From: an uncultured Clostridia bacterium
Lineage (GTDB): Bacteria; Bacillota; Clostridia; TANB77; CAG-508
Reading direction: 5' to 3'
Assembly (NCBI GenBank): GCA_947581805.1
Contig: CANPVM010000002.1
Coordinates: 140,290 to 204,289 of the forward strand
DNA: 64,000 nucleotides
A model generated the notes under the pieces. That model made no database searches. It had not been told where the DNA came from and worked only from the letters and a program-made list of their open reading frames with translations. Shown piece after piece: positions 1 through 28,863 of the stretch; the stretch's first letter is position 1; each line of letters starts with the position of its first letter. Position numbers and translations under genes: made by a program.

Positions 1-427
1 TTAATGTACAAGAAGATAGCATAACAATTACTTTTCCTTCTTTATTTTTTTTCATAATAGTTAAAAAATTATTCAATATAATTACTAAAGAGCGTAATGA
101 AATATTAATATCTTTATTAAATTTTTCCCATGTAATTTTTGAAAATTTTATATTCTCATACTTTCCTGCTGGTAAATGAACAATATGTGTAGGAATCTTT
201 CCTGTATTTTTTATTTCTTCGACAAATTGATTAGTTCCTTCTTCATCTAAAAAATTCCCATATATTAAAACTAATTTATCTCCTAATTTCTCTTTTAATG
301 TCACTAATTTTTCATTGTCATTCACATGGTGTGCTATGATATAGTCGTAATTTTTTGCTACTTCTGTAATTAATTGTACTCCTATGTCTGAAGATGCTCC
401 TGTAACTAATAACACCTTATTCTCCAT
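1..427 (-). CDS. Short-chain dehydrogenase/reductase (FabG-like), partial; continues beyond the window start
   Basis: The minus-strand translation from the ATG at 427 begins MENKVLLVTGASSDIG..., the Rossmann TGxxxGxG motif of SDRs. The start overlaps the stop of the MaoC-like gene by about 10 nt. Confidence 0.6.
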   Translation of the reverse strand, partial: MENKVLLVTGASSDIGVQLITEVAKNYDYIIAHHVNDNEKLVTLKEKLGDKLVLIYGNFLDEEGTNQFVEEIKNTGKIPTHIVHLPAGKYENIKFSKITWEKFNKDINISLRSLVIILNNFLTIMKKNKEGKVIVMLSSCTL

Positions 428-878
428 CTAAAACACCTACTTTCATAATTCCCCTTAATACCTTTTCTTGATTTTTATTGAATATTGAAACGTTTATTGT
501 AATTTGTTTGAAATTATCATTTATTTCTGTTACTTTTCCTTTTACTGTTAAAGGACTATCTGAAATAAATACAGGCTTTTTAAATATAACTTCTACACTA
601 TGTATTAAACTATATTTTCCCGGTAGATAAACTCCTGCTAAAGTTGATAAAAAAGATGATGTTAGCATTCCATATACTACTTTTTCTTCATATCCTTTTG
701 ATTTTGCATATGTTAAGTTGTTATGTAGTGGATTTGAATCTCCTGTTATTTCTAAGAATTTGTTCATTGTTTCTTCTGTAATTTCTACGCTAAAACTTTC
801 TTCCATTCCTACCTTTATATCTCTAAATGTGTATATTCCCGTGTGTGTGTGTGTGTGTGTGTGTGTGTACAGTATCAA
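417..878 (-). CDS. MaoC-like (hot-dog fold) dehydratase with a (Thr-His)n N-terminus encoded by a GT/AC dinucleotide repeat
   Basis: The 153-aa ORF reads ...IKVGMEESFSVEITEETMNKFLEITGDSNPLHNN..., typical of MaoC/(R)-hydratase family proteins. In this frame the only start is TTG at 878. An SD-preceded ATG at 888-886 lies in another frame. Confidence 0.6.
   Translation of the reverse strand: MILYTHTHTHTHTGIYTFRDIKVGMEESFSVEITEETMNKFLEITGDSNPLHNNLTYAKSKGYEEKVVYGMLTSSFLSTLAGVYLPGKYSLIHSVEVIFKKPVFISDSPLTVKGKVTEINDNFKQITINVSIFNKNQEKVLRGIMKVGVLDGE
841..868. repeat. (GT)14 dinucleotide microsatellite within the 5' end of the MaoC-like gene
   Basis: A perfect gt x14 tract read directly from the sequence. 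It is translated as THTHTHTHT on the minus strand. Confidence 0.9.
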
Positions 879-984
879 GGGTTTCCATTGTACTTCTTTT
901 TTCCTCCTTATTTTTTTATTTTGTATTTATTTTTTCATTCAATACTTTTTCATTACATATTTTTTTATAATGATTCATCATAGT

Positions 985-1990
985 CTTTATTAGTTATTTT
1001 CTTATAATCTTGTTTGAATCTTTTATATTCATTATCCCAAGAAGCATAATTTTCATCACCTCTATAATCTGGTAATTCATAATTTTCTTTTAAGTATTTA
1101 GCAAAGTATAATGTATATTTTGTTGCACCATAGACGTTTAGATGTGCATAATTATAAAAAAATCTGTATGATAACTAATGTTGTTTAATTTTTTCTCTAA
1201 ATTGCAATTAATAACTTTAAATCCATTTTCCTGTATAATTTTAACTGCACTATTTCATCTTTCTATTTTTCCTTCCTCAAAAATTCTTTTAGGTATTACA
1301 AATAAGACATTTATATCATTTTCTTTTATATATTTTATCAAATCACAGAGTATTTTATTACTTTCATTTTCTAGTTCAATAACATCGTTTGACCATGTAT
1401 ATTTATCTATGGAATCTATTATTGTTGTACCTTCATTAAATAGATACCCTTTATATAAGTCTGTTTTATTAGTTATACTATCTTTTGAAATGTTTTTCCA
1501 TTTATTACGATATAATAAAAAGCTATAATAAAAATTAAGATATTCTTTTTGATTTATATCTTTTTTATACTTTAATATATCATTTATGGCATCTATCTTA
1601 TTTTGGCAAAATTTCATAGTATTGTATCAGTAGTTTTCCTAATTTCTTCTGTTGTAAATGATTCTATAGTATTGGCAACTAATGCTATATCAATAACATA
1701 TAAATATGGATTTTGAGATTTTTCAATTTCTTTTATGCAGTATTTTGTTAGTGCAAATGGTTGTGTACTAGTTGAAAATAGACAAGTAGTATATCCATAT
1801 AAATTATAGGTTAACATCGTATTAAAATGTGCAAAAACATTACTACTTCCTATATACGCAACATCTATAGAAATTTTTTGGTTCTTTATAAAAATATGTA
1901 ATAAAAAATGTCTCTATCCAAAGTATATGATATACAGTAAAAATAAAATAAAAAAATTAGTAAAAATGTAATTGTTTTTATTATTTTTTT
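985..1990 (-). pseudogene. Decayed paralog of the DltD-like/SGNH-type gene at 5709-6728, with multiple frame breaks
   Basis: The fragment ORFs at 1614-1817 and 1255-1617 and the untranslated stretches at about 985-1190 and 1818-1985 align collinearly with the 5709-6728 protein. Matches include VAYIGSSNVFAHFN, YVIDIALV, FYYSFLLYRNKWKNISK and NYAHLNVYGATKYT. The breaks are not at CGG codons. Confidence 0.6.
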
Positions 1991-2009
1991 ATTTTTTCTT
2001 GGTCTCCTT

Positions 2010-3552
2010 TTAAAATTGTTTATAAATAAATGCTGTTGCATCATAACCTGCACCATAACAACCAAATATGATAATAGTGAAAATTAGTGTATATAATACT
2101 CCCCATCGAAATACAATATTTTGCTCTAATAATTTTTCTCTTACGTCTCTTCTTCTTGCTAAGAATTGCATCATAAATAAGATTATTAATGAAACAAATA
2201 ATACTGCTAAATCATAAAAATCTAATCCAATATTACTTATCATATTTAATAACATTTCTTTATTCATTAATGATTGTATGTTAATTGTAAACATATTTTT
2301 TATAATTTCTATAGCATTTGATACACTATTTGCTCTAAAGAAAATCATAGCAAAAGAAAATAACAAATAAGTTCTTATTACTTGATATAACTTATAACTA
2401 AATACTTCTGTATTAATTCCTAATTTATTATTAATCTTTTTTGATATTGGTCCGTAATATATCTTCTAAAAACATAAATATAAATTGCAATATTCCTGAA
2501 CCAATAATAAATTTATATTCTCCACCATGCCAAGCACCAATTAATATCCACATAATTAGCATTGATAGATACATTGGTATTTTCTTTGCTGCTTTTTTAC
2601 CAAATTTTGCTTTACATTTTTTTGCTAGGTTCTGCATAGCATCTGATTTTAATAATGGATAGAATATATAATCTTTAAGCCATGCCCCTAATGTAATATG
2701 CCAGTTTCTCCATAGTTCTGTAATAGTTCTTGAGAAAAATGGAAGATTAAAGTTTTCTGGCAATTTGATACCTATAATTTCAGATATTCCCATAATTACA
2801 TCAATAGAACCAGAAAAATTAGTATATAGTTGCATTACAAACGCCATGGCAGCTGCAATAATAAAGATAAATGTAAACATTTCTAAATTTCCATAAATAG
2901 CATCTACAAACATACCTAATCTTTGAGAAATTACTAATATTTTAAATAGTCCCCATAGAATTCTAATTAGTCCTCTACACAATGTATCATAATGTAGTTT
3001 GTGTCCTTCATATAATTGTTTTCCTACACTATCATAGCGAATAAATGGTCCTGATGTTAAAATTGGGAAATATGACATAAATAAAGCACACTTAAATATA
3101 TTTTTTTCTGCTTTGCAAGTACCTCGATAAACATCTACTAAGTAGCCTATCATAATTAATGAATAGTAACTAATACCTATTAATGAATTTCGTTGTACAA
3201 AGGTAAATTGATAATCTATATTTAACAAGTTATTGATATGATTTGCTGTTGCTAAAAATAAATTGGTATATTTTAAGTAAATTAGTTGTGCTAGTATAAT
3301 AATAATACCTAAAATCAAGATTTTTTTACCTTGTTTTGTATTTGTATGATTTTCTATTTTTCTTCCTAATATGTAACTTGGAACAAGAATAACTAAGGCT
3401 TGTATTACTGTACTGATATGTAGGTTATCATAAAATAAAAAGATAATACTTGAAATTAATAAGACTACCCATTGAAATTTTTTAGGCATTATAAAATAAA
3501 TGCATAATGTTATAACTACATAACATAAAAAAAATAATGATGTTAAATTCAT
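2010..3552 (-). CDS. MBOAT family membrane O-acyltransferase (DltB/AlgI-like) #2; needs a +1 shift at the in-frame CGG at 2452-2454
   Basis: The 373-aa ORF is multi-TM with MBOAT features and ends ...DILRTNIKKD* just after an in-frame CGG. Skipping the C gives ...DILGPISKK...YLLFSFAMIFFRANSV..., which runs into the 118-aa ORF carrying the conserved C-terminal FFRA motif. MBOAT#1 has the equivalent VIFRADN. Confidence 0.65.
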
Positions 3553-3553
3553 A

Positions 3554-3802
3554 TTATTTTCCCTCTATTCTGTCTAAAATGATATCTACCATTTCACCAA
3601 CGTTTTTCATTGTTGTTACTTCATTCATGTTGAATTTCATTCCAAATTCTTGCTCTACTGCTACTACTAGATTGATGTGTTCTAGGCTATCCCAATCTTC
3701 AATATCGTTTGATGTTGTTTCTTCTGTTACTACAATACTTTCATCATCAAATATATCTCTAAATACCTTATTTAATCTTTCAAATACTTCTTCTCTTTTC
3801 AT
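3554..3802 (-). CDS. Acyl/peptidyl carrier protein (DltC-like)
   Basis: The 82-aa protein has the phosphopantetheine-attachment motif DWDSLEH and sits immediately downstream of the FkbH-like gene. Confidence 0.7.
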   Translation of the reverse strand: MKREEVFERLNKVFRDIFDDESIVVTEETTSNDIEDWDSLEHINLVVAVEQEFGMKFNMNEVTTMKNVGEMVDIILDRIEGK

Positions 3803-3805
3803 TTT

Positions 3806-5587
3806 TTATTCCTCCACTTCAATTACATTATTTTTATTTGTATATCCTTTTGAGATATCTAATTTATAGGTTTTGTTTCCTTGTTCATCACAAGATATTT
3901 CTTCAAAACCTTGTAAATCATAGAAATTGTTTACCATTTTATTTTTTAAAGTTGGATAATAATAGCCATAAATTGTTTTTATATTTCTTTCTTTTGCTTT
4001 TTTTACCAACTCATCCATCATAGCAAATTCCATGTTTCTTTTTAACACTCTACAACTCATAATCCATAAATCTATATGTAGTTCATCTTCATTTTTAATG
4101 TTACCAATAACAACTGTAATAACGCCATTATCTCCAAAAATGTCTTCTAATTTTCCATATAGTTTTATATAGGTATCATCTTGATTGACTGATTCAATGT
4201 CTGCTAATGAATATCTTTTTGTTGTTAAGTTAAATTGATTACTTTTATTACTTAGTTGTGAAATTCTTTCCAAGTAAATTGGTTTAAATGTTGTGATTTC
4301 TGCTTTCATTTTTAATGAAAGTAAATAATCATCATAATTATCAAAGGTTGCCATCATTTGGCTTCTTTTGGCATTGTCTTTATACATTTCACTTTTCTTT
4401 AAGTCTTCGTTAGAAAAGTTGGTTACTTCAAAGTATCCATTATGGTCAATTATTTTTATATAGTTTTCTGGCACATCAATTTCAGGTGTTGAAAGTCCTT
4501 CTACATAGTCTTTACATATTTGTCTTTCTGCTGGGTTATCATCTACAAATACAAAACTATCTGCTCCTAAATTTAGTTCTTCTGCTATATCTTTTATATT
4601 TAGGTTTTTAGGATTCCAATTTGCTTTTATTATAATAAAGTCTTCTGGCTTTAAGGTTCCTGCTGGGTGGTTTAGGCCTGCTATTGCATTTTCATATTCA
4701 TTTTTGGAGTTGATATTTAATATAACACCTAAACTTTTATGTTCTTTTAAATAGTTTTGAAATTCTGTGTAAACTTGTCCACTTGGTACCTCTGGCCCAA
4801 TTTTCAAGTTTTCTACTCCATCATCTCCAACAATTCCTCCCCACAAAGTGTTATCTAAGTCTAATACAAAGGCTTTTTTATTTTTTCCATAAATTGATTT
4901 GATAATGTTTGCTAAGTTAAATGATAAATATGGAATGGCTGGTACTTCCATTGCGTATTTATACATATGCCAATAAAATTGATTTGACCATTTGTCTAGT
5001 CCATAACAAGATGATACATAGTTTATATCATTTATAAAGAAATTTTTGGTTTGGTTAGCATAGTCATAGAATTTTTGATTTAATCTTGTTATAAAGTTTG
5101 TTTTTCCGTGAATATCTACTGCATCTTTATTTCCTAGTAAACGATAGTATGGATATTCAAAGTTATTTTGAATGATGCTAACATTGAATTTTGAAAATAA
5201 CTTGTCCCACATTTTTTTAAATTTTTCATATTCAAAATTAAGTTTTTCTTCTACCATTTTTTCGTCATCATACATAATTGGATATTGTATAATATTTCTA
5301 TTGCTAGTGTGTATGTATATAATGTCTGGTTTAAAGTTATCTAATTCTTCGTTTCCAAACATAGCATCTTCATAAAATTTATTATATTCTGATTCATAAA
5401 ATGTAGGTTTTATGCCATAGTTTAACAAAAATAGTTCTAACATATTTTTTATTTCACTTGTGGTGGAGCCACCTAATATTGCTATGTTTTTTTCTAATAA
5501 ACCTGGTTTTAGCAATAGTTCTTTTTTTATTTTTCTTTTGTTTTTCATGATGTAATTTACATCAAATGGATATTCTAGTTTTTTCAT
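3806..5587 (-). CDS. FkbH-like domain protein (HAD-superfamily enzyme that loads a glyceryl unit onto a carrier protein)
   Basis: The 593-aa protein has the HAD motif I FVLDLDNTLWGGIVGDDGVENLKIG that is characteristic of FkbH/OzmB-type enzymes. It lies directly upstream of the ACP gene. Confidence 0.6.
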   Translation of the reverse strand: MKKLEYPFDVNYIMKNKRKIKKELLLKPGLLEKNIAILGGSTTSEIKNMLELFLLNYGIKPTFYESEYNKFYEDAMFGNEELDNFKPDIIYIHTSNRNIIQYPIMYDDEKMVEEKLNFEYEKFKKMWDKLFSKFNVSIIQNNFEYPYYRLLGNKDAVDIHGKTNFITRLNQKFYDYANQTKNFFINDINYVSSCYGLDKWSNQFYWHMYKYAMEVPAIPYLSFNLANIIKSIYGKNKKAFVLDLDNTLWGGIVGDDGVENLKIGPEVPSGQVYTEFQNYLKEHKSLGVILNINSKNEYENAIAGLNHPAGTLKPEDFIIIKANWNPKNLNIKDIAEELNLGADSFVFVDDNPAERQICKDYVEGLSTPEIDVPENYIKIIDHNGYFEVTNFSNEDLKKSEMYKDNAKRSQMMATFDNYDDYLLSLKMKAEITTFKPIYLERISQLSNKSNQFNLTTKRYSLADIESVNQDDTYIKLYGKLEDIFGDNGVITVVIGNIKNEDELHIDLWIMSCRVLKRNMEFAMMDELVKKAKERNIKTIYGYYYPTLKNKMVNNFYDLQGFEEISCDEQGNKTYKLDISKGYTNKNNVIEVEE

Positions 5588-5708
5588 TTCTATACCTCTT
5601 ATACTTTTTATATTTTTCTGTTTTATAGAAGTTTAATTTTACAATACAAAACCCTAAATAACAATATTTTGCAAAGAAAGTTGTTAAAATTATACAAATG
5701 CAGTGTTT

Positions 5709-6728
5709 TTACAATAGATTTTCAAAATCTTCTCCTATTACTTTCTCATAATTATTTTTAAATCTAATATATTCATTCTCCCATGAATTATAAAGTTCAT
5801 CATTTCTATGGTCAGGTAAATCATAATATTTTTTTAAGTATTCCGAAAAATATTTTGTATATTTTGTTGCTCCCCATACATTTAGATGTGCAGAATTGTA
5901 AAAATCTTTACTATAGTCAACTTTAAAATCTTCTAATGTATTAAAATTAATTACATCAAAACCATTTTCTTGTATAATAGATATTGCGCAATTAATACTT
6001 CCAACATTTTTAAAGACTCTACTAGGAACTACAAATAATACATTCAATTTATTTGCTTTAATATAATCAAGCAAGTCCTCTAATATTTCTTTATTTTCTT
6101 GTTTTAATCTTGTTTTTTCATTATTCCATTGATACTCATTTTGTTTTTCTACTTTATAGGTTCCTTCATCAAAAAGATATCCTTTATATAGTGTTTCATT
6201 ACCCACAATGTTTATTTTACTAATATTTTTCCATTTGTTGTGATATAGTAAAAAACTAAAATAATAGTTTATATAGTCTTCTTTTTTTAAATCTGTATAT
6301 TTTAACATACCATTAATTGCATCTATTCTGTTTTTAGAATTTTTTAAAGAGTCAATCACATTTCTTTGATACCCTTCTTTATCTTCACTAAACTCATCTC
6401 CTACTCTTGCTATATCTATTACATATAATTCAGGATTTTGATATTTTTTTGATTCTTCCAATAAATACTTAATTGCTGAAAAAGGTTGCGCATTTGTAGC
6501 TAACAAACTTACTGTAAAACCATGTAAATCATATGCTAATGGAGCATTATAGTGTGCAAGAACATTACTTGAACCTACATAAACAACGTCTATAGAATTT
6601 TTAGGTTCATCATAAAAATAGCCAACGTTTGCTTTTTCCAACCATAATACTTTGAAAACAATACTCCATAAAATGTAAAATATAATTAAAAATACTATAA
6701 ATTTAATGAATTTTATAATTTTTTTCAT
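5709..6728 (-). CDS. DltD-like/SGNH-fold extracytoplasmic acyl-transfer protein
   Basis: The 339-aa protein has an N-terminal TM anchor, a GSSN block (VVYVGSSNV) and a C-terminal D-x5-H block (DFYNSAHLNVWG). It is the terminal gene of a carrier-protein/MBOAT module. Confidence 0.45.
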   Translation of the reverse strand: MKKIIKFIKFIVFLIIFYILWSIVFKVLWLEKANVGYFYDEPKNSIDVVYVGSSNVLAHYNAPLAYDLHGFTVSLLATNAQPFSAIKYLLEESKKYQNPELYVIDIARVGDEFSEDKEGYQRNVIDSLKNSKNRIDAINGMLKYTDLKKEDYINYYFSFLLYHNKWKNISKINIVGNETLYKGYLFDEGTYKVEKQNEYQWNNEKTRLKQENKEILEDLLDYIKANKLNVLFVVPSRVFKNVGSINCAISIIQENGFDVINFNTLEDFKVDYSKDFYNSAHLNVWGATKYTKYFSEYLKKYYDLPDHRNDELYNSWENEYIRFKNNYEKVIGEDFENLL

Positions 6729-8153
6729 TTTTATTCTCCTTTAAAACTGTAGTAATGTAAACTAAATTTATGTTGTTTTATTTAATTTTGTTCTTAAAAA
6801 TATCCTTTAAAGTTTAAAGAAAAGGATGATTCTTTATTTTCCCTCAATACAGTAAACTTAAGGTTGATGGACTTTCTATATTTTTATTTCTGACAAGAAG
6901 GATTATAAACTTCTTTTAAATCAATATTTTAAAGAGCACCATAAACATTTAAAAACTATTAAGTCTTGTGATAAAAATCCTATCCAATGATATTCATTGT
7001 CCTAGTTATAATATTCCTCACCAATTTATTTACGACAACACTGGTGGCTATAGTAAATTTTTGTACAGTTTGCGGTTTTCACTTTTTTCGTAAATGATAA
7101 CCGTATTATTGAACTCCGTTGCTCTTATTGTTTCGATACTCTTACTTTAGAGAAAAATTATAAACTTTTTAATATTCATAAGTTCCATAATAATAAATAT
7201 TTTTGCTATTATCTCCTTATGTTATGGATTTATATCTTACTTAGTTAGCTATGGTATGTTTATTTTTTTATAGATGTTATCAAAAGTCTATCTTAGGCTA
7301 TAGAAATTCTGATTCTAGTTCTACATTAAATGTTCCTCTTTTTATAACTAATTTCTTACTTTTTTCCATATAATTCGTCTAAAAATTTTCAGTTATATAA
7401 ATAAATTTGCTATTAACATTATTATTTATTAGATTTTTTCCATAATTTTCTTGTAAATTTTATAATATTTATTATACATCTAATATACTACTTTAGTCAA
7501 TAAAAATATTAATTTATAATTTATATTTTTACATAATAATTATGTAGAAATAATGGTAAAAATACTACACTTTGGAAATATTGAAAAAGTTATCAAAAAA
7601 CTAACAGTAAAAATTAGGTTACTTGAGCTAAAGAATATATTGTTCAAAGAACAAAATAAGAAAGTAAAGACTATTACACTTACTTTACAAAATGAGTTAA
7701 AGGTAAAAAATTTGATTTTGAGTAAAAAATTATATACTTTGAGTTATATATTTTCTTTCACTATAGATAGACAACTACTCATAAAAAATTTCCAATTGTC
7801 TAAATTTTTAGTTTGTTTGGCATATTCTTAATAATGGTAACCATCAATATAAATCAAATTGATAAATATGATTAAAAAAATACAATATATATGCAATACA
7901 AATTTTAATAAAAAAAAAGCCCATATATCATATATATCAATGAAATACAAGCTTATTATTCTTTATAACTATTAAGATATTTATCTGAAAAATTAATTTA
8001 TCAATTCAATTATTAAAATTTTAAAAATTATCATAAGAAGTTTAAAATCTAAACATACTTTCCGATATTCCCTTAATGAACCTTTTCACAACCTCTCTTA
8101 GTTTTATCAAATTTTATATTTATAATAGAATCTTAAATTTTTTTATTTTTTAT

Positions 8154-9443
8154 CTATTCGAACCTCCACACTTTTGCCAAATTGCTTGTTTCATCTCCTT
8201 CAGCATAATTTTCTACTGCTCCTCCATTATACATAATTAGTACTAAGCTAGGATTAAAACTTTTTATATAACTTTTTAAACTCCCATTATAATATCTTAA
8301 ATCGATTATAGATAAGTACTCATTTTCTAATGCTAAAAAAGGTGATACCACATCAGCAAAACTATCTTTTATCATCAATATTTTTTTATTATTTTTTACT
8401 AGCTCATTATGTATTTCAATCAATGGTTTTTCTCCATAAGCATACGCCCCGTATTGGCTAGTAGAATAATAATTACCATATTCAATACGTGACCAATCAA
8501 TAAGAGTATTTTCAAAGCTATCTGTTTTATCAATACCTTTATTTAAGATTTTAATGTTTAATCTTGTATTAAATTTTGGTGTTATTAAGTCAAAATCTTC
8601 TGGCTCAGCATTTTTCAAGCTTACATATCTTCCATCATATCCCAAATACATTTTAGGATATATTTTAATATTATACTTATCAGGATTAATATTTTCTATA
8701 TTTAAATTTAAATTGTATGTATTATTTAAATATTTAGAAATTTCTCCAGCTACCCATAGTCCTGTTTCCGGTAACCAATGGTGATCCGTTTTATAAAACA
8801 ATGATAAATTGTCTAATTTTTTTTGTTTTATAATTTTCCTTAAATCAAGATAATCTATTTTTCCATTAATTTGCTTTAGAAATTTATTTACATTTTTATT
8901 TGTATAATCTCTATATATATTTGATGGCATCGGTTGATTTTCTGATATTTTATATGGTGCTTGTACATATAATAATGTTATATCATTTTCTTTTAGATAT
9001 TTATTAAATTCTATTATGTTATTAGCACATTTATCAACATCTTCTTCATTTTGTATTTGTGATAAATACCCATTTCCTAAATCAACCCTATCAAGTTCAT
9101 TCGAATTAGATACTAATTTATATAACATTAAATCTTTATAGATATATGATAATTCTATAAACTTTTCATATCCTAATAATTGTTCAGATGTATGTGCTTC
9201 AATTTTAGTTTTAATATCTTCTATAATTGTTTCATATTTTTTTAAGATGCTTGCTTTTTTTACAGTTTGTACTTCATCTGCTTCAAATGGAAATAACTTT
9301 TCATAATCTACATTTATACTTGAATTATCTTGCTCTTTTTTTATTATTTTTTTTATGATTGTAATACCTGATAATATCATCATTGCAATCAATACTAAAA
9401 TTATAAAAAATGTAGTAAAATTCTCTATTTTATTCTGTTTCAT
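8154..9443 (-). CDS. DHHW family protein (AlgJ/PatB/DltD-like extracytoplasmic O-acyltransferase partner)
   Basis: The 429-aa protein has an N-terminal TM and the diagnostic motif KTDHHWLPETG. It lies immediately downstream of an MBOAT gene. Confidence 0.65.
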   Translation of the reverse strand: MKQNKIENFTTFFIILVLIAMMILSGITIIKKIIKKEQDNSSINVDYEKLFPFEADEVQTVKKASILKKYETIIEDIKTKIEAHTSEQLLGYEKFIELSYIYKDLMLYKLVSNSNELDRVDLGNGYLSQIQNEEDVDKCANNIIEFNKYLKENDITLLYVQAPYKISENQPMPSNIYRDYTNKNVNKFLKQINGKIDYLDLRKIIKQKKLDNLSLFYKTDHHWLPETGLWVAGEISKYLNNTYNLNLNIENINPDKYNIKIYPKMYLGYDGRYVSLKNAEPEDFDLITPKFNTRLNIKILNKGIDKTDSFENTLIDWSRIEYGNYYSTSQYGAYAYGEKPLIEIHNELVKNNKKILMIKDSFADVVSPFLALENEYLSIIDLRYYNGSLKSYIKSFNPSLVLIMYNGGAVENYAEGDETSNLAKVWRFE

Positions 9444-9460
9444 AATTATAGTCTCCCTTT

Positions 9461-17624: not shown

Positions 17625-20270
17625 TTAATAACTATCTCTAAAGTAAATGCTATCTAATAATTCTTTATTGATTTCTTTTTTTACATTTTTAAAACAATAT
17701 TTATATATTTTATCTCCTAGTGCTGGTACAGTGTATATAGAACCATCTTTAGTTATAACTCCTCCTGCACATTTTGCTTTTATATTTTCCTTTACCTTAT
17801 ATATTTCTTTTACTTCATCTTTTTCAATATCATATTCGTAAACGATATTACCATCTCCGGGGATTCCATAGATTTTTCCATTTATGCCTAATTTGGTTCC
17901 ATAGCAGCCTGATACGCCTATTTCTGTATGAATCATTTGACTTTTTTTATTTTTTACATCTATTTTTAATATGCCTTTTTCCGTTTTTGAAAAACCATAT
18001 ATATTTCCATCTTTTCCTATTACTGCATCAAATACCATTGTGTTAATTTTTTCTCCTATAAAAGAAACTTTTTCAGTTTTTGTATTTAATACCATTACTC
18101 TTCTATTTCTTTCTGGAAAAAAGTAAATATTATTATTAGGATGTAATATTCCTGAATTATATCTATATTTTACATTAAGCCACTTAGGAGATATATATAT
18201 TTTTTTTGCTATTTTATTCTTTACATCAATTTTAAGAATATGATTACAATTTCTTGGTGCTTGATATACAACTCCATTCTCTATTTGAACTCCACTATAA
18301 TGATGTTCTTGTTTATATTTTAATCCTAATTGAATTTCTTCAACTTTTTTAGTACTTGGATCTAAACATAGTATTGTATTTCTAGTTCTAGGAAGAGCAT
18401 AAATTTTTCCTAAATATTCAAAACCTCCTGTCCACCTATATTTTCCTTCTTTGCAATTAAATGGTATATAGTTATAAGTTTCATTTTTTATATCGTACAC
18501 TAGAAATTTATTAATTCCATTTGGTATAAAATAAATGTTGTCATTATATTCAACTGCTCCAACCCATTTAAAATCATTTTTACCATCATTTAATTGAATC
18601 TCTTCTATCTTTTCTATATATGCATTTTTGTTATTTTCAATTAGCTTTAAAAAATCTTTATTTATTTGAAATTTCTCATCACTTTTGTTCATTTTCTTTA
18701 ATTCTATTTTATCAGGTATAAAAGCTAATATCTTTGCTAATATATTTTCTACCATTTTCATTGATTCTTTACATTCTTTTTGATTTCTATAAAAAATATA
18801 TAACATAATATTGGGAACCGTTAAGCATAATATCATTCTTCCAATAAAACTAATATACGTATACTCTGTAAATAGTTTACTGCATAAATAACAAGTTATT
18901 AATGCAACAATTAAAGTAGCAAATAAATATTTTATATCTTTTAATAACCATTCTTTCATTTGTTTTTTATTAAAATAGTATTTAAATAATACTACAGTAA
19001 ATCCTACATCATATACGCATACTAGACTAATAATTGTAGAGATTATAATTCCTTTTAGTCCTATAAACTGTACTAATATAATATTGGTAGTTAAGTTTAC
19101 AATAGCAGCAATAAGTGGAACATATCTATTATACCACCACATTCCTAATGCTTCTTGATATACATCTAACATATCAAACCACTTATTTGTGAAGAAATAT
19201 ATTGCAAATAACAATACTATTTCATTACCTAGTAGCATTTTTTCTCCTACCCACAAATACATAAAGTTTTGGAATAAACATAATAGTGATATTGTACAAA
19301 ATGAGATAATCCATATATAAATAAATGTGAATTTTTTTAAATCATTAAAATTCTTTTCCTTTGTTTCTAAAATAATTGAATTTCCAACACTTGCTTTTAG
19401 TGAAGTTGATATAACTCCTAAAATTCCATATATTCCAGTAATTACATAATAATAATTTGAATATACTCCTAAAGTTTCCAAGCCTAAAAATGATGATATT
19501 ACTATAAAATCCACATTTCCTAATACCACTAATCCAATTTTCTTTAGTATCATTCCTTTTATTTGTTTTTTCAGTTCAATAACTTGATTTTCTTCAAGTT
19601 TTCCATCAATTTCTTTTATTTCAGGATATCTTTTATTTACAACCCAAGCGACAAATAAGTTATTGCATATTGTTGTTATAGGTAATGCAATTATGTATAA
19701 GTAATAATTTTTTGCTATTAGTAAAATTACTATTTGTAATAAATTTTTAGTAATTAAAACTACTGAACTAATTTTGCTAATCATATCTTCTCTTTGACTA
19801 GCTGCTAATAGTGAACTCTTATATGCAAATAGAAAGTACGTTAAGCATGTATTTACTAAATTAATTAGGTAAACTATATAAATGTTTATACCTGCTGGAT
19901 AATCTCCACTTATAAGGTTCTTTAAAAAAGGTAACATTATAAGTCCTATTGCAAAGATTATAATACCCATAATTCTGTAAACTTTTTTATAAAGATTTAA
20001 TAATACTCCTACTTTTTTAGTATCATTTTCAGCTATTGGCTTATACATACTAAATGTTATAGCATTAGAGAAACCTAACTCTGCTAAATTTAAAACTTGT
20101 AAAATTGAAACAAATAGGTCATTAAGACCTAAAAACTTGTTACCTAAAATATATATAAAAACTGTTCTAGTTATAAATGGAAATATAATATTTAAAACTC
20201 TCTGTAAAAATCCAAAGACAATATTTCTACTAGCATTTTTTGTTCTACTGTTTTCAATTAAATTCATCAC
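17625..20270 (-). CDS. Wzx-like polysaccharide flippase (MOP superfamily) fused to a C-terminal domain of about 390 aa built from roughly eight repeats of about 45 aa
   Basis: The N-terminal 500 aa or so are a typical multi-TM Wzx (...NASRNIVFGFLQRVLNIIFPFITRTVFIYILGNKFLGLNDLF...). The C-terminal part repeats an [ILV]Y-x-[IF]P-x(5-8)-[IV]L-x-[ILV]D-like motif, for example NDNIYFIPNGINKFLVYDIKNETY and GKIYALPRTRNTILCLDPSTKKV. Confidence 0.6.
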   Translation of the reverse strand: MMNLIENSRTKNASRNIVFGFLQRVLNIIFPFITRTVFIYILGNKFLGLNDLFVSILQVLNLAELGFSNAITFSMYKPIAENDTKKVGVLLNLYKKVYRIMGIIIFAIGLIMLPFLKNLISGDYPAGINIYIVYLINLVNTCLTYFLFAYKSSLLAASQREDMISKISSVVLITKNLLQIVILLIAKNYYLYIIALPITTICNNLFVAWVVNKRYPEIKEIDGKLEENQVIELKKQIKGMILKKIGLVVLGNVDFIVISSFLGLETLGVYSNYYYVITGIYGILGVISTSLKASVGNSIILETKEKNFNDLKKFTFIYIWIISFCTISLLCLFQNFMYLWVGEKMLLGNEIVLLFAIYFFTNKWFDMLDVYQEALGMWWYNRYVPLIAAIVNLTTNIILVQFIGLKGIIISTIISLVCVYDVGFTVVLFKYYFNKKQMKEWLLKDIKYLFATLIVALITCYLCSKLFTEYTYISFIGRMILCLTVPNIMLYIFYRNQKECKESMKMVENILAKILAFIPDKIELKKMNKSDEKFQINKDFLKLIENNKNAYIEKIEEIQLNDGKNDFKWVGAVEYNDNIYFIPNGINKFLVYDIKNETYNYIPFNCKEGKYRWTGGFEYLGKIYALPRTRNTILCLDPSTKKVEEIQLGLKYKQEHHYSGVQIENGVVYQAPRNCNHILKIDVKNKIAKKIYISPKWLNVKYRYNSGILHPNNNIYFFPERNRRVMVLNTKTEKVSFIGEKINTMVFDAVIGKDGNIYGFSKTEKGILKIDVKNKKSQMIHTEIGVSGCYGTKLGINGKIYGIPGDGNIVYEYDIEKDEVKEIYKVKENIKAKCAGGVITKDGSIYTVPALGDKIYKYCFKNVKKEINKELLDSIYFRDSY

Positions 20271-25094: not shown

Positions 25095-26864
25095 CTAATT
25101 CTTCTTTAAAATATTGATTATCTTCTTAGCTTTATCTTGGCCTATTGTTCCTTTTATAATATTTTTACTTTTATTTACAATTTCATCTTTTAGTGTTCGT
25201 GGACTACTAAAATCATAAAAATCAAAAATTGTTTGAGCATCATCTTTCATCTCAGTAAATACTTCAAAAAATACTGGCTTTTCATCTTGTATTTTCATGA
25301 ATTTTTCCACATTAGCCTCAAATGATTCTTTATCATTTGCTGATAAATATGTAAAATTATTTTCTTCTACCCATCCTTTTGCTTTTGTATTATGTCTTGC
25401 TGATGTATGTAGCTCTCCTGATTTATTTAAACATGTCTTATTATAGTAAAACTCAGAACCTCCATGATTATTTATCATTAAAATATGTACATTCTTTTTT
25501 ATGCTATTTATTCTTAATGCATTCATATCATAAAAGAAAGCTAAATCCCCTATTACAAGAAAACTCTCCTTGTTACTAACTGTTGCTTGACCTAAGAATG
25601 TAGATAAAGGTCCATCAATTCCATAAGTGCCTATATTTGCATATGTTTTTATATTGTTATTTAATTTAAAATAATTAGCTATTCTAATACTATCATTAAC
25701 ACTTAAATGTAAAATTGAATTCGATGGCATTTTTTGAACAACATTTTTTATTGCATAAATATGTGAAAATCTAAATTCAGGCATTTCTACTGAATCTGAG
25801 TATTTTTTAAAATTATTATAATATTCCATACTATTCTTATTCTTTGAATTTTTATTAAAATATTCAAAGAAATATTCTGGTTGACATTCAAATATTGTTT
25901 TTAAACTCTTGAACGTATCAACTACTTGTCCATCTTCTTCTATACTCCAATGTTCAAATTTTCCATTTAATTTTCTAAATTGCTCTTTTATTGAAGAGAA
26001 AATTTGTCCCCCAAAAGTTATCAATACATCTGGTAGTAGCTCCTTAACTATATTACTATTTGAATATTTAGGATCAAAACATGTTATAGTATTTATTCCT
26101 TCTTCTATCTGGACATTTGACATATGATCTACTACTATAGTTGCATTATAGTTTTTAAAGAAATCTTTTATTTCTTTTTCTAATTTTGGAGTAACGTTAC
26201 TTTTTTGTCCACATACAACTAGGACTTTTTTGCAATTTTGTAATTTTTTTACTTTTTCATCCCATTTTGATTTATCTTCGCACAAACTAATTCTTTCTAT
26301 TTTTTTTACTTTTGGAAGTTCTTTTACATTAAAGGACATATTATAATCATAGGTTGGAACATTTATATGAATTGGCCCTTTTCTACCATTATGATTTAAT
26401 TCCAAAAATGCTTCATTTATTAGTCTTTGGCAATAGATTTCATCATCTACTGTATTTATAATTGGTAGATTAACTGATTTTTGTACATGCCTATCAAACA
26501 TACCTACTTGATTTATCATTTGATCTTCCCATTGACCCAGCATTCTAAAATCTCTGTCACTTGTTAATACTATTATTGGAACTCTTTGATAAAATGCTTC
26601 TGCAACAGGTGGCCAATAATTACATGATGCTGTAGAAGCTGTACAAGATATTAAAACTGGTTCATTTAATTCTTGTGCTAAGCCCAATGCAAAATATCCC
26701 GCACTCCTTTCATCTACAACGGAATAACATTTAAAGAAATCATCTTCTTCAACAGAATGAACAAAAGGTACATTTCTTGATCCTGCCGACAGTACACAAT
26801 GTTTAATTCCATACTCTTTTAATAATGCTATTAAAATTTGATAACTTTTTATTTCTGTATACAT
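25095..26864 (-). CDS. MenD-family thiamine-diphosphate enzyme (SEPHCHC-synthase-like paralog) embedded in the glycan locus
   Basis: Blocks CVLSAGSRNVPFV, DERSAGYFALGLAQ, VPIIVLTSDRDFRMLGQWEDQMINQ and GPIHINVPTYD align with the MenD motifs PGSRSTPL, DERSAGFFALGLAK, LTADRP...QAINQ and GPVHVNVP. A ThDP GD..FYDMN-type motif (IGDLAFFYDMNAL) is present. Start taken as the ATG at 26864 with AAGGAG 7 nt upstream. Confidence 0.6.
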   Translation of the reverse strand: MYTEIKSYQILIALLKEYGIKHCVLSAGSRNVPFVHSVEEDDFFKCYSVVDERSAGYFALGLAQELNEPVLISCTASTASCNYWPPVAEAFYQRVPIIVLTSDRDFRMLGQWEDQMINQVGMFDRHVQKSVNLPIINTVDDEIYCQRLINEAFLELNHNGRKGPIHINVPTYDYNMSFNVKELPKVKKIERISLCEDKSKWDEKVKKLQNCKKVLVVCGQKSNVTPKLEKEIKDFFKNYNATIVVDHMSNVQIEEGINTITCFDPKYSNSNIVKELLPDVLITFGGQIFSSIKEQFRKLNGKFEHWSIEEDGQVVDTFKSLKTIFECQPEYFFEYFNKNSKNKNSMEYYNNFKKYSDSVEMPEFRFSHIYAIKNVVQKMPSNSILHLSVNDSIRIANYFKLNNNIKTYANIGTYGIDGPLSTFLGQATVSNKESFLVIGDLAFFYDMNALRINSIKKNVHILMINNHGGSEFYYNKTCLNKSGELHTSARHNTKAKGWVEENNFTYLSANDKESFEANVEKFMKIQDEKPVFFEVFTEMKDDAQTIFDFYDFSSPRTLKDEIVNKSKNIIKGTIGQDKAKKIINILKKN

Positions 26865-26878
26865 ATATATTCTCCTTT

Positions 26879-27757
26879 TTATATATTTATATGATTTCCC
26901 GCATTGCAATGTAAGATTTCACCTGAAATACATTTACTTGCATCGCTCAATAAAAATAAAGTAACTTCTGCTATTTCCTCTGGTAAAAAACATCTACCTG
27001 AACTTTCATCTGTTGCCAAATTATTGCCATTTGTTCCAGCATAATCCTTTGTCATATCAGATATTGTTACACCAGGTGCTATACCATTTACTCTAATTCC
27101 ACTTTTGTAATATTTTTTTGCCAATGCCTGTATTAAAGAATTTAGGGATGCTTTTGTTAATCTATATGGTAAATCAGATGCACATGAACCGCCTTGCGAA
27201 CTAATTATTATTAATTCAGATTCTCCCTCATTTTCTTTATTCTCTATTTTTTTCTCAATAAATGCTTTTGATAAAAAATATGTTCCCCTAAGATTAATAT
27301 CAAATTGTTTATCAAAACTTTCTGTTGTTACGTTTTCGATACTTCCCTCATATAAGTTTATTCCTGCATTATTGATAAGAGCATTTATCACACCATTTTT
27401 AAATTTTTTGCAACATTGCTTTATAAACAAATTAGCATTATCTACATCACTTATATCAAATACTATATATGAACAATTTTTACCAAGTTCCTTACATGCT
27501 TTAATAAGTTTATTTTCATCTCTACCCGAAATTATAACATTAGCTCCTTCTTGAATACATTTTTTTGCCATATAATAGCCTAATCCTCGTCCTCCACCTG
27601 TAATTACAATATTTTTATTTTTTAATATTTCTCCATAATTAACTTGGGAGATTTTAACTTCTACATAATTTTCAGGTTGACTGGCTAAAATAAATTTTGC
27701 AATTTTTTTACAGAACTTTCTAACCCCCCCCCATTTATTTTGCTCCTTTCTATACAT
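26879..27757 (-). CDS. SDR-family oxidoreductase #3 with a G9 tract in its 5' region, overlapping the 3' end of pyruvyl transferase #2
   Basis: It has the motif NIVITGGGRGLGYYMAKK. Its N-terminal extension is homologous to SDR #1 and #2 (KISQVNYGEIL versus KINQIHSEKML). Codons W-G-G-V are tgg ggg ggg gtt. Confidence 0.65.
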   Translation of the reverse strand: MYRKEQNKWGGVRKFCKKIAKFILASQPENYVEVKISQVNYGEILKNKNIVITGGGRGLGYYMAKKCIQEGANVIISGRDENKLIKACKELGKNCSYIVFDISDVDNANLFIKQCCKKFKNGVINALINNAGINLYEGSIENVTTESFDKQFDINLRGTYFLSKAFIEKKIENKENEGESELIIISSQGGSCASDLPYRLTKASLNSLIQALAKKYYKSGIRVNGIAPGVTISDMTKDYAGTNGNNLATDESSGRCFLPEEIAEVTLFLLSDASKCISGEILHCNAGNHINI

Positions 27758-28863
27758 TCTTTGATAGTTTCTTCTATAAAGTTAATAGATTTTTTTCTTT
27801 CTTCATCTAATATTTTATTAACCTTTTCATATTCTATTTCCTTGTCAATAATAGTTAAATCATTAAAATTATTTACTCTTCTTTCTTCTAAGTTTGTTAA
27901 CTCTAATATACTTTGTAATCTTGTACTAAATTTTTGCGGAAAAATACATACAAATTTTTTATTAAAATTTATTGCAAAACCTGTAGCATGAAAAGAATCA
28001 GTAACAATATATGCTGCTTTATCAAAATAAGATAAAAACTCATTTATTGTAGGACAAAATACAAGTTTACCGTATTTAAAAAATTGATAGTTTACATTAG
28101 AAATTCTTAATACTGGCATTTTTTTCTTTTTTGATAGTTTTTTGACATATTCATCAAATTTTGGATTGTTGCTATTTAATTGGTAAACCAAAATATATGG
28201 TTTCTTTATTTTGACTTCTTCACTTATATCTTTCCATGCTTTTTTATTTAATAATAATGTTGGATCTAATACTTGGATAGCATTGTCTATTCCCATTTTT
28301 TTTAATATTTTTAATGCAGAATTTTCTCTAACAGAAATCCTTTTATATTTTATTAACATTTTTTTTAGTTCTTCTTCTTCTTTTTTCTCAAGTTCTATTT
28401 TTCCAAAACTTGAAGCATAAGCAAATCTAGGTACATCATTCTCTAAAAAATCTAGAAATAAAGCTCTATCAATTTCTTCATTCCACTCACTATTCCATAC
28501 TTGATCGCTTCCTGTACAATATATATCTGCTTTTGGCGTATTTTTTTTTAATTCTTCATTTGAATAATATTTTTTTGTTAAATGGACGTATTTACCTAAA
28601 AACTTATGAAAAACTTCTATTTGTTTGTTTATAGATGTAGTTAAAAATAATTTTCCAATAAATTTTGTGATAATATTTCTAGAGAAAATAGATGAGCTAT
28701 CAATTCTTCTTTTTACCATAGTTTCTTCTACATCTACTTTTCTATAATAATTTATTATTTCAACTTCATTTCCTAGTTTTTCCAACGTTTTTTGTGTTGC
28801 ATATGTTTGCAAAGCAGACCCATAATTTTTTACATTATGTAAAGTAATAACGTCTATTTTCAT
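27685..28863 (-). CDS. Polysaccharide pyruvyl transferase family protein #2
   Basis: The 392-aa protein has the GSDQVWNSEW block and is homologous to 13679-14761. Confidence 0.6.
   Translation of the reverse strand: MKIDVITLHNVKNYGSALQTYATQKTLEKLGNEVEIINYYRKVDVEETMVKRRIDSSSIFSRNIITKFIGKLFLTTSINKQIEVFHKFLGKYVHLTKKYYSNEELKKNTPKADIYCTGSDQVWNSEWNEEIDRALFLDFLENDVPRFAYASSFGKIELEKKEEEELKKMLIKYKRISVRENSALKILKKMGIDNAIQVLDPTLLLNKKAWKDISEEVKIKKPYILVYQLNSNNPKFDEYVKKLSKKKKMPVLRISNVNYQFFKYGKLVFCPTINEFLSYFDKAAYIVTDSFHATGFAINFNKKFVCIFPQKFSTRLQSILELTNLEERRVNNFNDLTIIDKEIEYEKVNKILDEERKKSINFIEETIKECIERSKINGGGLESSVKKLQNLF
27724..27732. repeat. Homopolymeric C9 (G9 coding) tract in the overlap between SDR #3 and pyruvyl transferase #2
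   Basis: Read directly from the sequence. It is in-frame in both genes: NGGGLES in the transferase tail and KWGGVRK in the SDR. Confidence 0.9.

Follow-up and report, generated by a model that had tools for sequence, protein, structure and literature searches.

A poly-G tract at the junction of a pyruvyl transferase gene and a short-chain dehydrogenase gene: a candidate phase-variation element in a polysaccharide locus of an uncultured Clostridia bacterium

Introduction

The question raised by the locus described here is what a run of nine guanines does at a position where two genes overlap. The run lies in a stretch of 64,000 nucleotides (nt), hereafter the window, from an uncultured Clostridia bacterium (GenBank assembly GCA_947581805.1, contig CANPVM010000002.1, positions 140,290 to 204,289), and it is shared by the 3' end of the second of two polysaccharide pyruvyl transferase genes (transferase 2) and the 5' region of the third of three genes for short-chain dehydrogenases/reductases (SDRs; SDR3). 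We consider it probable, at roughly 0.6, that this G9 tract is a slippage-prone contingency (phase-variation) tract, one of three such tracts in a capsule/exopolysaccharide locus of this low-GC gut bacterium. As the first base of the tract is also the last base of the SDR start codon, and the transferase stop is close by, gain or loss of a single base would re-set both genes.

Results

The tract and the two overlapping reading frames

All coordinates are those of the window; the tract, transferase 2 and the SDR genes are located on the minus strand. Three features make up the overlap:

27724..27732, minus strand: G9 homopolymer; the canonical ATG of SDR3 ends on its first G (27732), and in the transferase frame the tract reads GGG GGG GGG
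27685..28863, minus strand: polysaccharide pyruvyl transferase 2, 392 amino acids (aa) at G9; Pfam PS_pyruv_trans, E 1.7e-38; ends ...INGGGLESSVKKLQNLF-stop
26879..27757, minus strand: SDR3 frame as open at G9, 292 aa; adh_short/adh_short_C2; begins MYRKEQNKWGGVRK

The G9 tract is real. It appears as C9 of the plus strand at 27724-27732, that is, as G9 on the coding minus strand (27732..27724), where the text runs ...GAA TGT ATA GAA AGG AGC AAA ATA AAT GGG GGG GGG TTA GAA AGT.... The tract encodes glycine codons in either frame and is located 13-14 codons ahead of the transferase 2 stop. Within the 292-aa open reading frame (ORF) of SDR3, the Rossmann motif TGGGRGLG occupies residues 53-60. 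A preliminary description of this DNA had given the same C-terminus for the transferase and the same N-terminus for the SDR at G9, and the ORF translations bear this out. It had also placed the tract in the overlap of the two genes and in frame in both; both ORFs are indeed open, but the overlap measures 73 nt (27685-27757) instead of the 70 nt given there.

The tract is beyond chance. The window has a G+C content of 26.2%, and G/C runs longer than five occur only three times, with lengths of 8, 8 and 9; runs of 1-5 are present, and runs of 6-7 are missing. GGGGGGGG has four matches in the three tracts compared to 0.06 expected, and at least four matches were reached in none of 100 dinucleotide shuffles. 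Among the glycine codons, GGG is the least used (56 of 899, 6.2%), and in the 46 ORFs of the window GGG-GGG pairs are confined to the three tracts. The uninterrupted G/C run at the gene junction, which extends over the start codon of the SDR and the 3' end of the transferase gene and exceeds a length of 7-8, is over-represented relative to base as well as codon composition. All three tracts have their G on the coding strand and belong to a single polysaccharide-biosynthesis gene cluster, which encodes an initiating phosphotransferase, EpsG, GT2/GT4 glycosyltransferases, two pyruvyl transferases, three SDRs, an acyltransferase and a flippase-like protein, in a gene context (sortase, VanZ, EpsG) that is Gram-positive-like. 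The presence of three tracts in one glycan locus together with the lack of runs of 6-7 argues for selection on long tracts.

Nearly all long ORFs of the window are located on the minus strand, and the plus strand holds 10075 C compared to 6708 G and 27457 T compared to 19760 A. All three tracts being G on the G-rich coding strand follows from this skew in strand composition.

The start of SDR3 and the end of transferase 2

The effect of the tract depends on where SDR3 starts, for which the following features are relevant:

27732..27734, minus strand: canonical start ATG of SDR3; Met-Gly start of the family; in frame with the SDR at G5, G8 and G11, MGGG-stop at G9
27743..27751, minus strand: Shine-Dalgarno AGAAAGGAG, which pairs perfectly with the 16S 3' tail over 9 nt, 8 nt before the canonical ATG and within the transferase coding region
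27720..27734, minus strand: four-codon ORF ATG GGG GGG GGT TAG (MGGG-stop), product of the Shine-Dalgarno-served start at G9
27755..27757, minus strand: upstream ATG heading the 292-aa ORF; without a usable Shine-Dalgarno and probably fortuitous

Comparison with its relatives places the family Met of the SDR at the ATG at 27734..27732. The best 120 relatives are 54-64% identical to SDR3, have a length of 279-291 aa, a range from which the 230-aa public call of the window's own SDR3 gene is excluded, and cover 95-97% of the 292-aa query. The 17 homologues that were fetched (283-291 aa) start with M-G (one with M-S), followed by [YIVL]-K-[RKQ]...RKIAKFILASQPE, and their alignment sets in at query residue ~9-11. 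YRKEQNKW, the eight residues at the N-terminus of the 292-aa ORF, is without counterpart in these proteins. At the corresponding position, the DNA of the relatives reads ATG GGA TAT/ATA and has no tract. The Shine-Dalgarno of the canonical ATG has a duplex energy of -12.5 kcal/mol, which ranks above 91% of the window's gene starts and is attained by only 0.25% of the ATGs of the strand, whereas the ATG at 27757 yields -2.2 kcal/mol at a background median of -1.9.

Two further features of this region were considered and dropped. For window genes read in the +1 frame, 31% of positions have an in-frame ATG upstream with no stop in between, and 26% have one within 10 codons, so that the 'rescue' ATG at 27757 is unremarkable (P = 0.31 and 0.26, respectively). 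The TAA right before the canonical ATG was rejected as an ancestral transferase stop, as its frame is already closed by a TAG five codons upstream. Public gene calls of SDR3 start at Met63 (230 aa, P0001) and thereby lose the Rossmann motif; we infer that this call arises because the 73-nt overlap exceeds the overlap limit of the gene callers. An exact-sequence look-up of the 292-aa SDR3 gave no match.

At the other side of the junction, the homologues of transferase 2 (best 120) have a length of 367-400 aa, apart from a 280-aa partial match and one 554-aa protein. The homologues of 367-383 aa cover 93-96% of the 392-aa query and stop 0-6 residues past the conserved ...ERKKSxxF...I.EC motif, and the paralogous transferase of the window (13679..14761) ends ...TIKECIEN-stop. 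In L107, the closest relative that shares the gene order and stems from the sample also holding the 72%-identical transferase (P0122), the junction is ...EEC GKGEN TAG ATG GGA ATA; here, the transferase stop abuts the SDR start and there is neither an overlap nor a tract. The last 12 transferase codons at G9 (LESSVKKLQNLF, 27688-27723) have no counterpart in the homologues. The end positions of the homologues and the L107 junction indicate that this tail is an out-of-frame translation of the SDR gene's 5' end. With regard to transferase 2, the tract is therefore a near-3' tract whose frames differ in a short tail, and the homologues end near the G8 position.

Predicted products at different tract lengths

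Tract lengths from G5 to G13 were simulated for both frames, which resulted in three length classes:

G5, G8, G11: transferase of 379-381 aa ending ...KING(G)n; SDR of 283-285 aa from the Shine-Dalgarno-served ATG
G6, G9, G12: transferase longer by a 12-aa tail; translation from the Shine-Dalgarno-served ATG ends as MGG(G)(G)-stop, which leaves the ATG at 27757 as the only start from which the SDR frame is open
G7, G10, G13: one fused transferase-SDR product of 660-662 aa (G10, 661 aa)

G8 would yield a 380-aa transferase (...KINGGG-stop) and a 284-aa SDR (MGGVRKF...), and the most homologue-like N-terminus of the SDR (MGVRKF...) is obtained at G5. Depending on the length class, the glycine run is followed by 0, 12 or, in the fusion, 281 residues up to the end of the transferase. 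In the simulation, length changes of one unit decide whether the SDR start is in phase with its otherwise intact ORF. The Met-Gly start of the family, the strong Shine-Dalgarno and a transferase length within the family range suggest that G8 is the canonical state, in which both genes are normal and the SDR is on, and that the sequenced G9 is aberrant and one base too long. As the SDR frame can then be reached only via an ATG without a Shine-Dalgarno, SDR3 is predicted to be off or very low at G9, with little or no translation.

These predictions agree in part with the preliminary description. As proposed there, G8 cuts the transferase tail (...KINGGG-stop), G10 joins the transferase and the SDR to the 661-aa product, and by sequence logic a single homopolymer can toggle between separate, altered and fused products. 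However, the assignment of the states appears to be inverted. G8 puts the SDR out of frame only if the ATG at 27757 is used, whereas the family start at 27734..27732 is in frame at G8. The underlying model, with G9 as the working length, SDR3 starting at the ATG at 27757 and two separate proteins, the SDR off at G8 and a fusion at G10, could draw on the two open ORFs at G9 and on G9 being the consensus in every assembly found. However, the ATG at 27757 does not rise above background (-2.2 kcal/mol) and the strong Shine-Dalgarno is located downstream of it, serving the other ATG; the 8 extra SDR residues and the 12-aa transferase tail are absent from the homologues, the canonical 284-aa SDR comes from G8, and an in-frame upstream ATG occurs by chance at ~26-31% of positions. 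We therefore regard this model as distinctly unlikely.

No natural transferase-SDR fusion was present among the best 120 homologues of the SDR or of the transferase, the 554-aa transferase match being unexamined. The fusion at G7/G10 is only a consequence of the reading frames.

The SDR might also be made at G9 from the Shine-Dalgarno-served ATG by recoding, with either the ribosome slipping by +1 on the G run (GGT-TAG, the stop codon being a hungry one) or RNA polymerase slipping and thereby producing G8 transcripts. The 0-frame stop TAG directly follows the run, and long homopolymers are known sites of polymerase slippage. Transcriptional slippage in Buchnera has been discussed earlier (Orsi et al., 2010; PMC2831843). 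However, there is no stimulator of the prfB type, i.e., an internal Shine-Dalgarno ~3 nt before the shift site; the sole Shine-Dalgarno is the one for initiation, ~18 nt upstream of GGT-TAG. In addition, the shift site is not conserved, as the relatives lack the tract. Recoding at G9 is thus very improbable.

Two further tracts in the same cluster

The other two long G runs of the window are located in the following genes:

15556..15563, minus strand: G8 at codons 17-19 of SDR1 (14798..15619), in frame (ON)
17235..17242, minus strand: G8 splitting an Acyl_transf_3 gene (OFF); a length of G9 or G6 gives a continuous ORF of 351-352 aa
16506..17569, minus strand: the split acyltransferase gene, consisting of the fragments 17213..17569 (116/118 aa) and 16506..17258 (250 aa)

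In SDR1, lengths other than 8 plus or minus a multiple of three stop translation after 18-28 aa (G6, G7, G9 and G10 simulated). SDR1 and SDR2 are tandem paralogues (14798-16483, minus strand), and at the tract SDR1 has AAG GGG GGG GTA compared to AAA GGT GGA ATA in SDR2 (K-G-G-V/I). The two sites differ by four substitutions, three of them synonymous, which all extend the G run, suggesting that, relative to SDR2, the tract of SDR1 is built by G-ward substitutions. The tracts do not reflect a requirement of the proteins, as relatives of SDR3 have ATG GGA TAT/ATA at the start and SDR2 has GGT GGA at the position of the SDR1 G8.

The preliminary description had taken a poly-G at the homologous GGV position of SDR1 as a sign that the tract is maintained. 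SDR1 does have a G8, but the position is not homologous. In a three-way alignment, K-G-G-V of SDR1 is located opposite a gap after ...ENYVE of SDR3 and opposite KGGI of SDR2, and GGV of SDR3 corresponds to the extreme N-terminus of the paralogues. The argument for maintenance fails, since the tracts are at different sites; according to the alignment, the tracts in SDR1 and SDR3 are independent acquisitions and not a conserved site.

The two fragments of the acyltransferase gene correspond to positions 1-109 (17213..17569) and 120-325 (16506..17258) of the Pfam profile. Upon addition of one G, a single 352-aa protein results that covers positions 1-325 of 326 with 127.7 bits. Public annotations call the gene as two. 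The frames downstream of the tracts in SDR3 and in the acyltransferase gene are fully intact, and no second lesions were present.

At 17625-20270 (minus strand), the window has an 881-aa ORF with a flippase-like multi-pass membrane N-terminus and a long repeat/propeller-like C-terminal domain, which has a faint match to DUF6923 and no NCBIfam hit.

Tract lengths in public assemblies

Length variation within the strain was assessed in six public assemblies. Contigs of ERZ27059539, ERZ27249206, ERZ27249211 and ERR10663675 span the SDR3 tract (L001/L011, L002/L012, L010, L013), and contigs of ERZ27249221 and ERZ27249211 the other two (L014, L015). The latter were reached via transferase 1 as an anchor, and an exact look-up of SDR2 remained without a match. 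Over 9-10 kb, the contigs share 99.99-100% identity with the window; they have neighbouring accession numbers and display the majority allele only. In a collection of 5.8 billion proteins, only G9-type products occurred, on 4-5 contigs; the 284-aa SDR, the 380-aa transferase and the 661-aa fusion had no 100%-identical entry. JGI metagenome contigs searched with a flank pattern allowing G6-G15 gave 0 matches, and the GTDB species representatives that were scanned do not include the species of the window.

The same data bear on a sequencing or assembly artefact with a true length of G8. Homopolymers are error-prone and the public contigs have ~4x coverage. However, the same G9 emerged from independent assemblies of several samples and from two pipelines (ENA SPAdes contigs and Logan), and the G8 tracts nearby are free of such miscalls in these data, making an artefact extremely unlikely.

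Tract lengths in relatives

In a sister species (Prs 92% identical, 24% G+C), the Acyl_transf_3 gene beside prs has a tract near its 3' end, which is G10 in one sample (L099, 12238-12247) and G9 in three (L100, 9446-9454; L101, 12238-12246; L102, 7720-7728). The difference changes the C-terminus and the length of the protein (342 compared to 332 aa), and the contigs share 99.83% identity over 18 kb. Tracts of this kind do vary in length within the lineage.

In addition, 80 loci with an SDR relative from species-representative genomes (513 kb) were scanned for runs of at least eight G, which identified 16 runs, all with the G on the strand of the SDR. In a Clostridia metagenome-assembled genome (MAG) with 23% GC (L067), G9 at 1167-1175 splits the SDR homologue at residue ~94. 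An adjacent gene for a MenD-like thiamine pyrophosphate (TPP) enzyme is split at residue ~272 by G8 in L045 (1973-1980) and by G9 in L076 (1971-1979). In Collinsella, an orthologous site downstream of the SDR (at 5422) has G9 in three loci (L031, L038, L042) and G8 in two (L039, L040), and the open frame differs accordingly (224 compared to 187 codons); another locus of this set (L033) has G12 at 5108-5119. In a locus of the C. paraputrificum type, a 367-aa membrane protein, probably a polymerase or ligase, contains G9 in one sample (L003, 6262-6270) and GGGGGTGGG at the same coordinates in another (L004); the latter is a synonymous interruption that would stabilise the tract.

A further alternative is that G9 is a fixed frameshift lesion, stable and non-switching, by which SDR3 is inactivated or crippled, and that the G8 in the acyltransferase gene represents similar gene decay. 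The identical tract lengths in all assemblies and the disruption of two of the three tract-bearing genes would fit. This is countered by the intact downstream frames without second lesions, by the clustering of three tracts in one glycan locus with none of 6-7, by the SDR1 tract, which is in frame and made by synonymous or conservative G-ward changes, and by the G9/G10 polymorphism in the sister species. Moreover, runs of at least eight G are intrinsically unstable in other bacteria (e.g., PMC2823697). A fixed lesion is, thus, rather unlikely.

Several points nevertheless weigh against a switching tract. No length variation was found, the lengths being G9/G8/G8 in the window and the six assemblies, which represent one strain from one project at ~4x and as consensus only. 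A G9 majority everywhere could mean a selected working state as well as a fixed lesion, and initiation of the SDR at the upstream ATG at 27757 may occur. Finally, a tract at the SDR start codon was present in 0 of the 80 related loci.

The enzyme cassette and the locus

The TPP-dependent enzyme encoded beside SDR3 (25095-26909, minus strand) matches NCBIfam MenD (SEPHCHC synthase) with 276 bits compared to a cut-off of 244 and is located within the polysaccharide locus. In relatives, genes for a pyruvyl transferase, a MenD-like enzyme and an SDR again occur as a trio, though in differing order, which suggests an uncharacterised glycan-modification pathway. The taxonomic placement by sequence rests on Prs, whose nearest named homologues, at 88-89% identity, come from MAGs entered as 'Clostridia bacterium'. 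Contigs with identical Prs (L103/L104, L105 and L106, bases 1-10000) have wholly different polysaccharide gene sets upstream of prs, as is typical of serotype-like, capsule-type cassette replacement in the lineage. Just past prs, at the edge of the polysaccharide locus, the window has a 157-aa ORF on the opposite strand (11232-11705, plus strand); the matching gene of identical contigs (L014, L015, L016) matches DDE_Tnp_ISL3 and is thus a transposase fragment.

Discussion

Under the phase-variation reading, replication slippage would gain or lose one G and thereby shift both genes together. At G5, G8 or G11, the normal arrangement would be produced, in which the transferase ends ...KINGGG and the SDR starts at the Shine-Dalgarno-served ATG. 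At G9, ribosomes recruited by this Shine-Dalgarno would synthesize MGGG and stop, and the transferase would bear a foreign tail of 12 aa; at G7 or G10, the two proteins would be fused. Together with the tracts in SDR1 (ON) and in the acyltransferase gene (OFF), a clonal population would be expected to display differing surface-glycan modifications as its phenotype. A wider version is possible but doubtful: the tract might act as a three-position selector (normal pair, tailed transferase with a silenced SDR, or bifunctional fusion), which together with the other two tracts would give a combinatorial phase-variation system with up to 12 surface-glycan states, and poly-G tracts may be a convergent and undescribed feature of the cassette of SDR, MenD-like TPP enzyme and pyruvyl transferase, such tracts being present in related loci from Clostridia, Lachnospiraceae, Collinsella, Bacteroidales and Akkermansia-type MAGs.

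Work on phase variation by simple repeats has centred on a handful of pathogens such as Campylobacter, Helicobacter, Neisseria and Haemophilus. In Campylobacter jejuni, the tracts are mostly located near the 5' end of an ORF, slippage by one base up or down switches the gene ON or OFF, and several tracts per locus result in combinatorial surface variants. The poly-G loci of this species for capsule, lipooligosaccharide and flagellar glycosylation (e.g., PMC3025981) likewise have runs of G8-G11 in surface-glycan genes of an AT-rich genome. In contrast, the host in our case is a Gram-positive-type gut member of the Clostridia, the tract starts inside a start codon and also lies in the tail of the upstream gene, and its switching is predicted. 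In the lic loci of Haemophilus influenzae, tetranucleotide repeats just past alternative functional ATGs in different frames change in number and so put one or another of these ATGs in frame, which leads to strong, weak or no translation. The counterparts in the window are the Shine-Dalgarno-served ATG, the ATG without a Shine-Dalgarno and the fusion frame; unlike in lic, the repeat is a homopolymer and the second ATG is statistically unremarkable.

In Helicobacter canadensis, a poly-G near the 3' end of a gene alters the C-terminal tail without abolishing the protein, and in one frame HCAN_0660 and HCAN_0661 are merged (Snyder et al., 2010; PMC2823697). The lengths of such tracts vary from G10 to G14 in read data, and the list given in that study includes an SDR of the 3-oxoacyl-ACP-reductase type in a glycan-related cluster (PMC2823697). 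The SDR3 tract similarly is a near-3' poly-G that changes the tail and in one frame merges the gene with the next. In contrast to H. canadensis, it also switches the start of the downstream gene itself, and variation, which was seen there, is predicted here. Homopolymeric tracts have further been described as general devices for reversible gene inactivation; poly(A)/poly(T) is over-represented, whereas poly(G)/poly(C) runs of 7-8 are so only in few genomes, almost all with a GC content below 50% (Orsi et al., 2010; PMC2831843). Like the tracts of that survey, the SDR3 tract is a 5'-proximal homopolymer at which a frameshift yields a very short peptide and would be reversible by slippage, and the window would fall into the poly(G)/poly(C) minority class. 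A literature search gave nothing specific on repeat-mediated phase variation in polysaccharide loci of Clostridia or Lachnospiraceae, which is no proof of absence. The locus adds a further case to a known mechanism, in a host that is unfamiliar for it and with an unusual two-gene geometry.

Capsule switching in gut commensals is usually ascribed to invertible promoters. The locus described here suggests that low-GC Clostridia also vary the modification of surface polysaccharides by poly-G slippage, and other gut lineages with the same enzyme cassette may do likewise. Gene calling that is aware of such tracts would recover the truncated SDR3 and the split acyltransferase. If the phase-variation reading is true, phage sensitivity, immune recognition and the interpretation of metagenomes at strain level would be affected.

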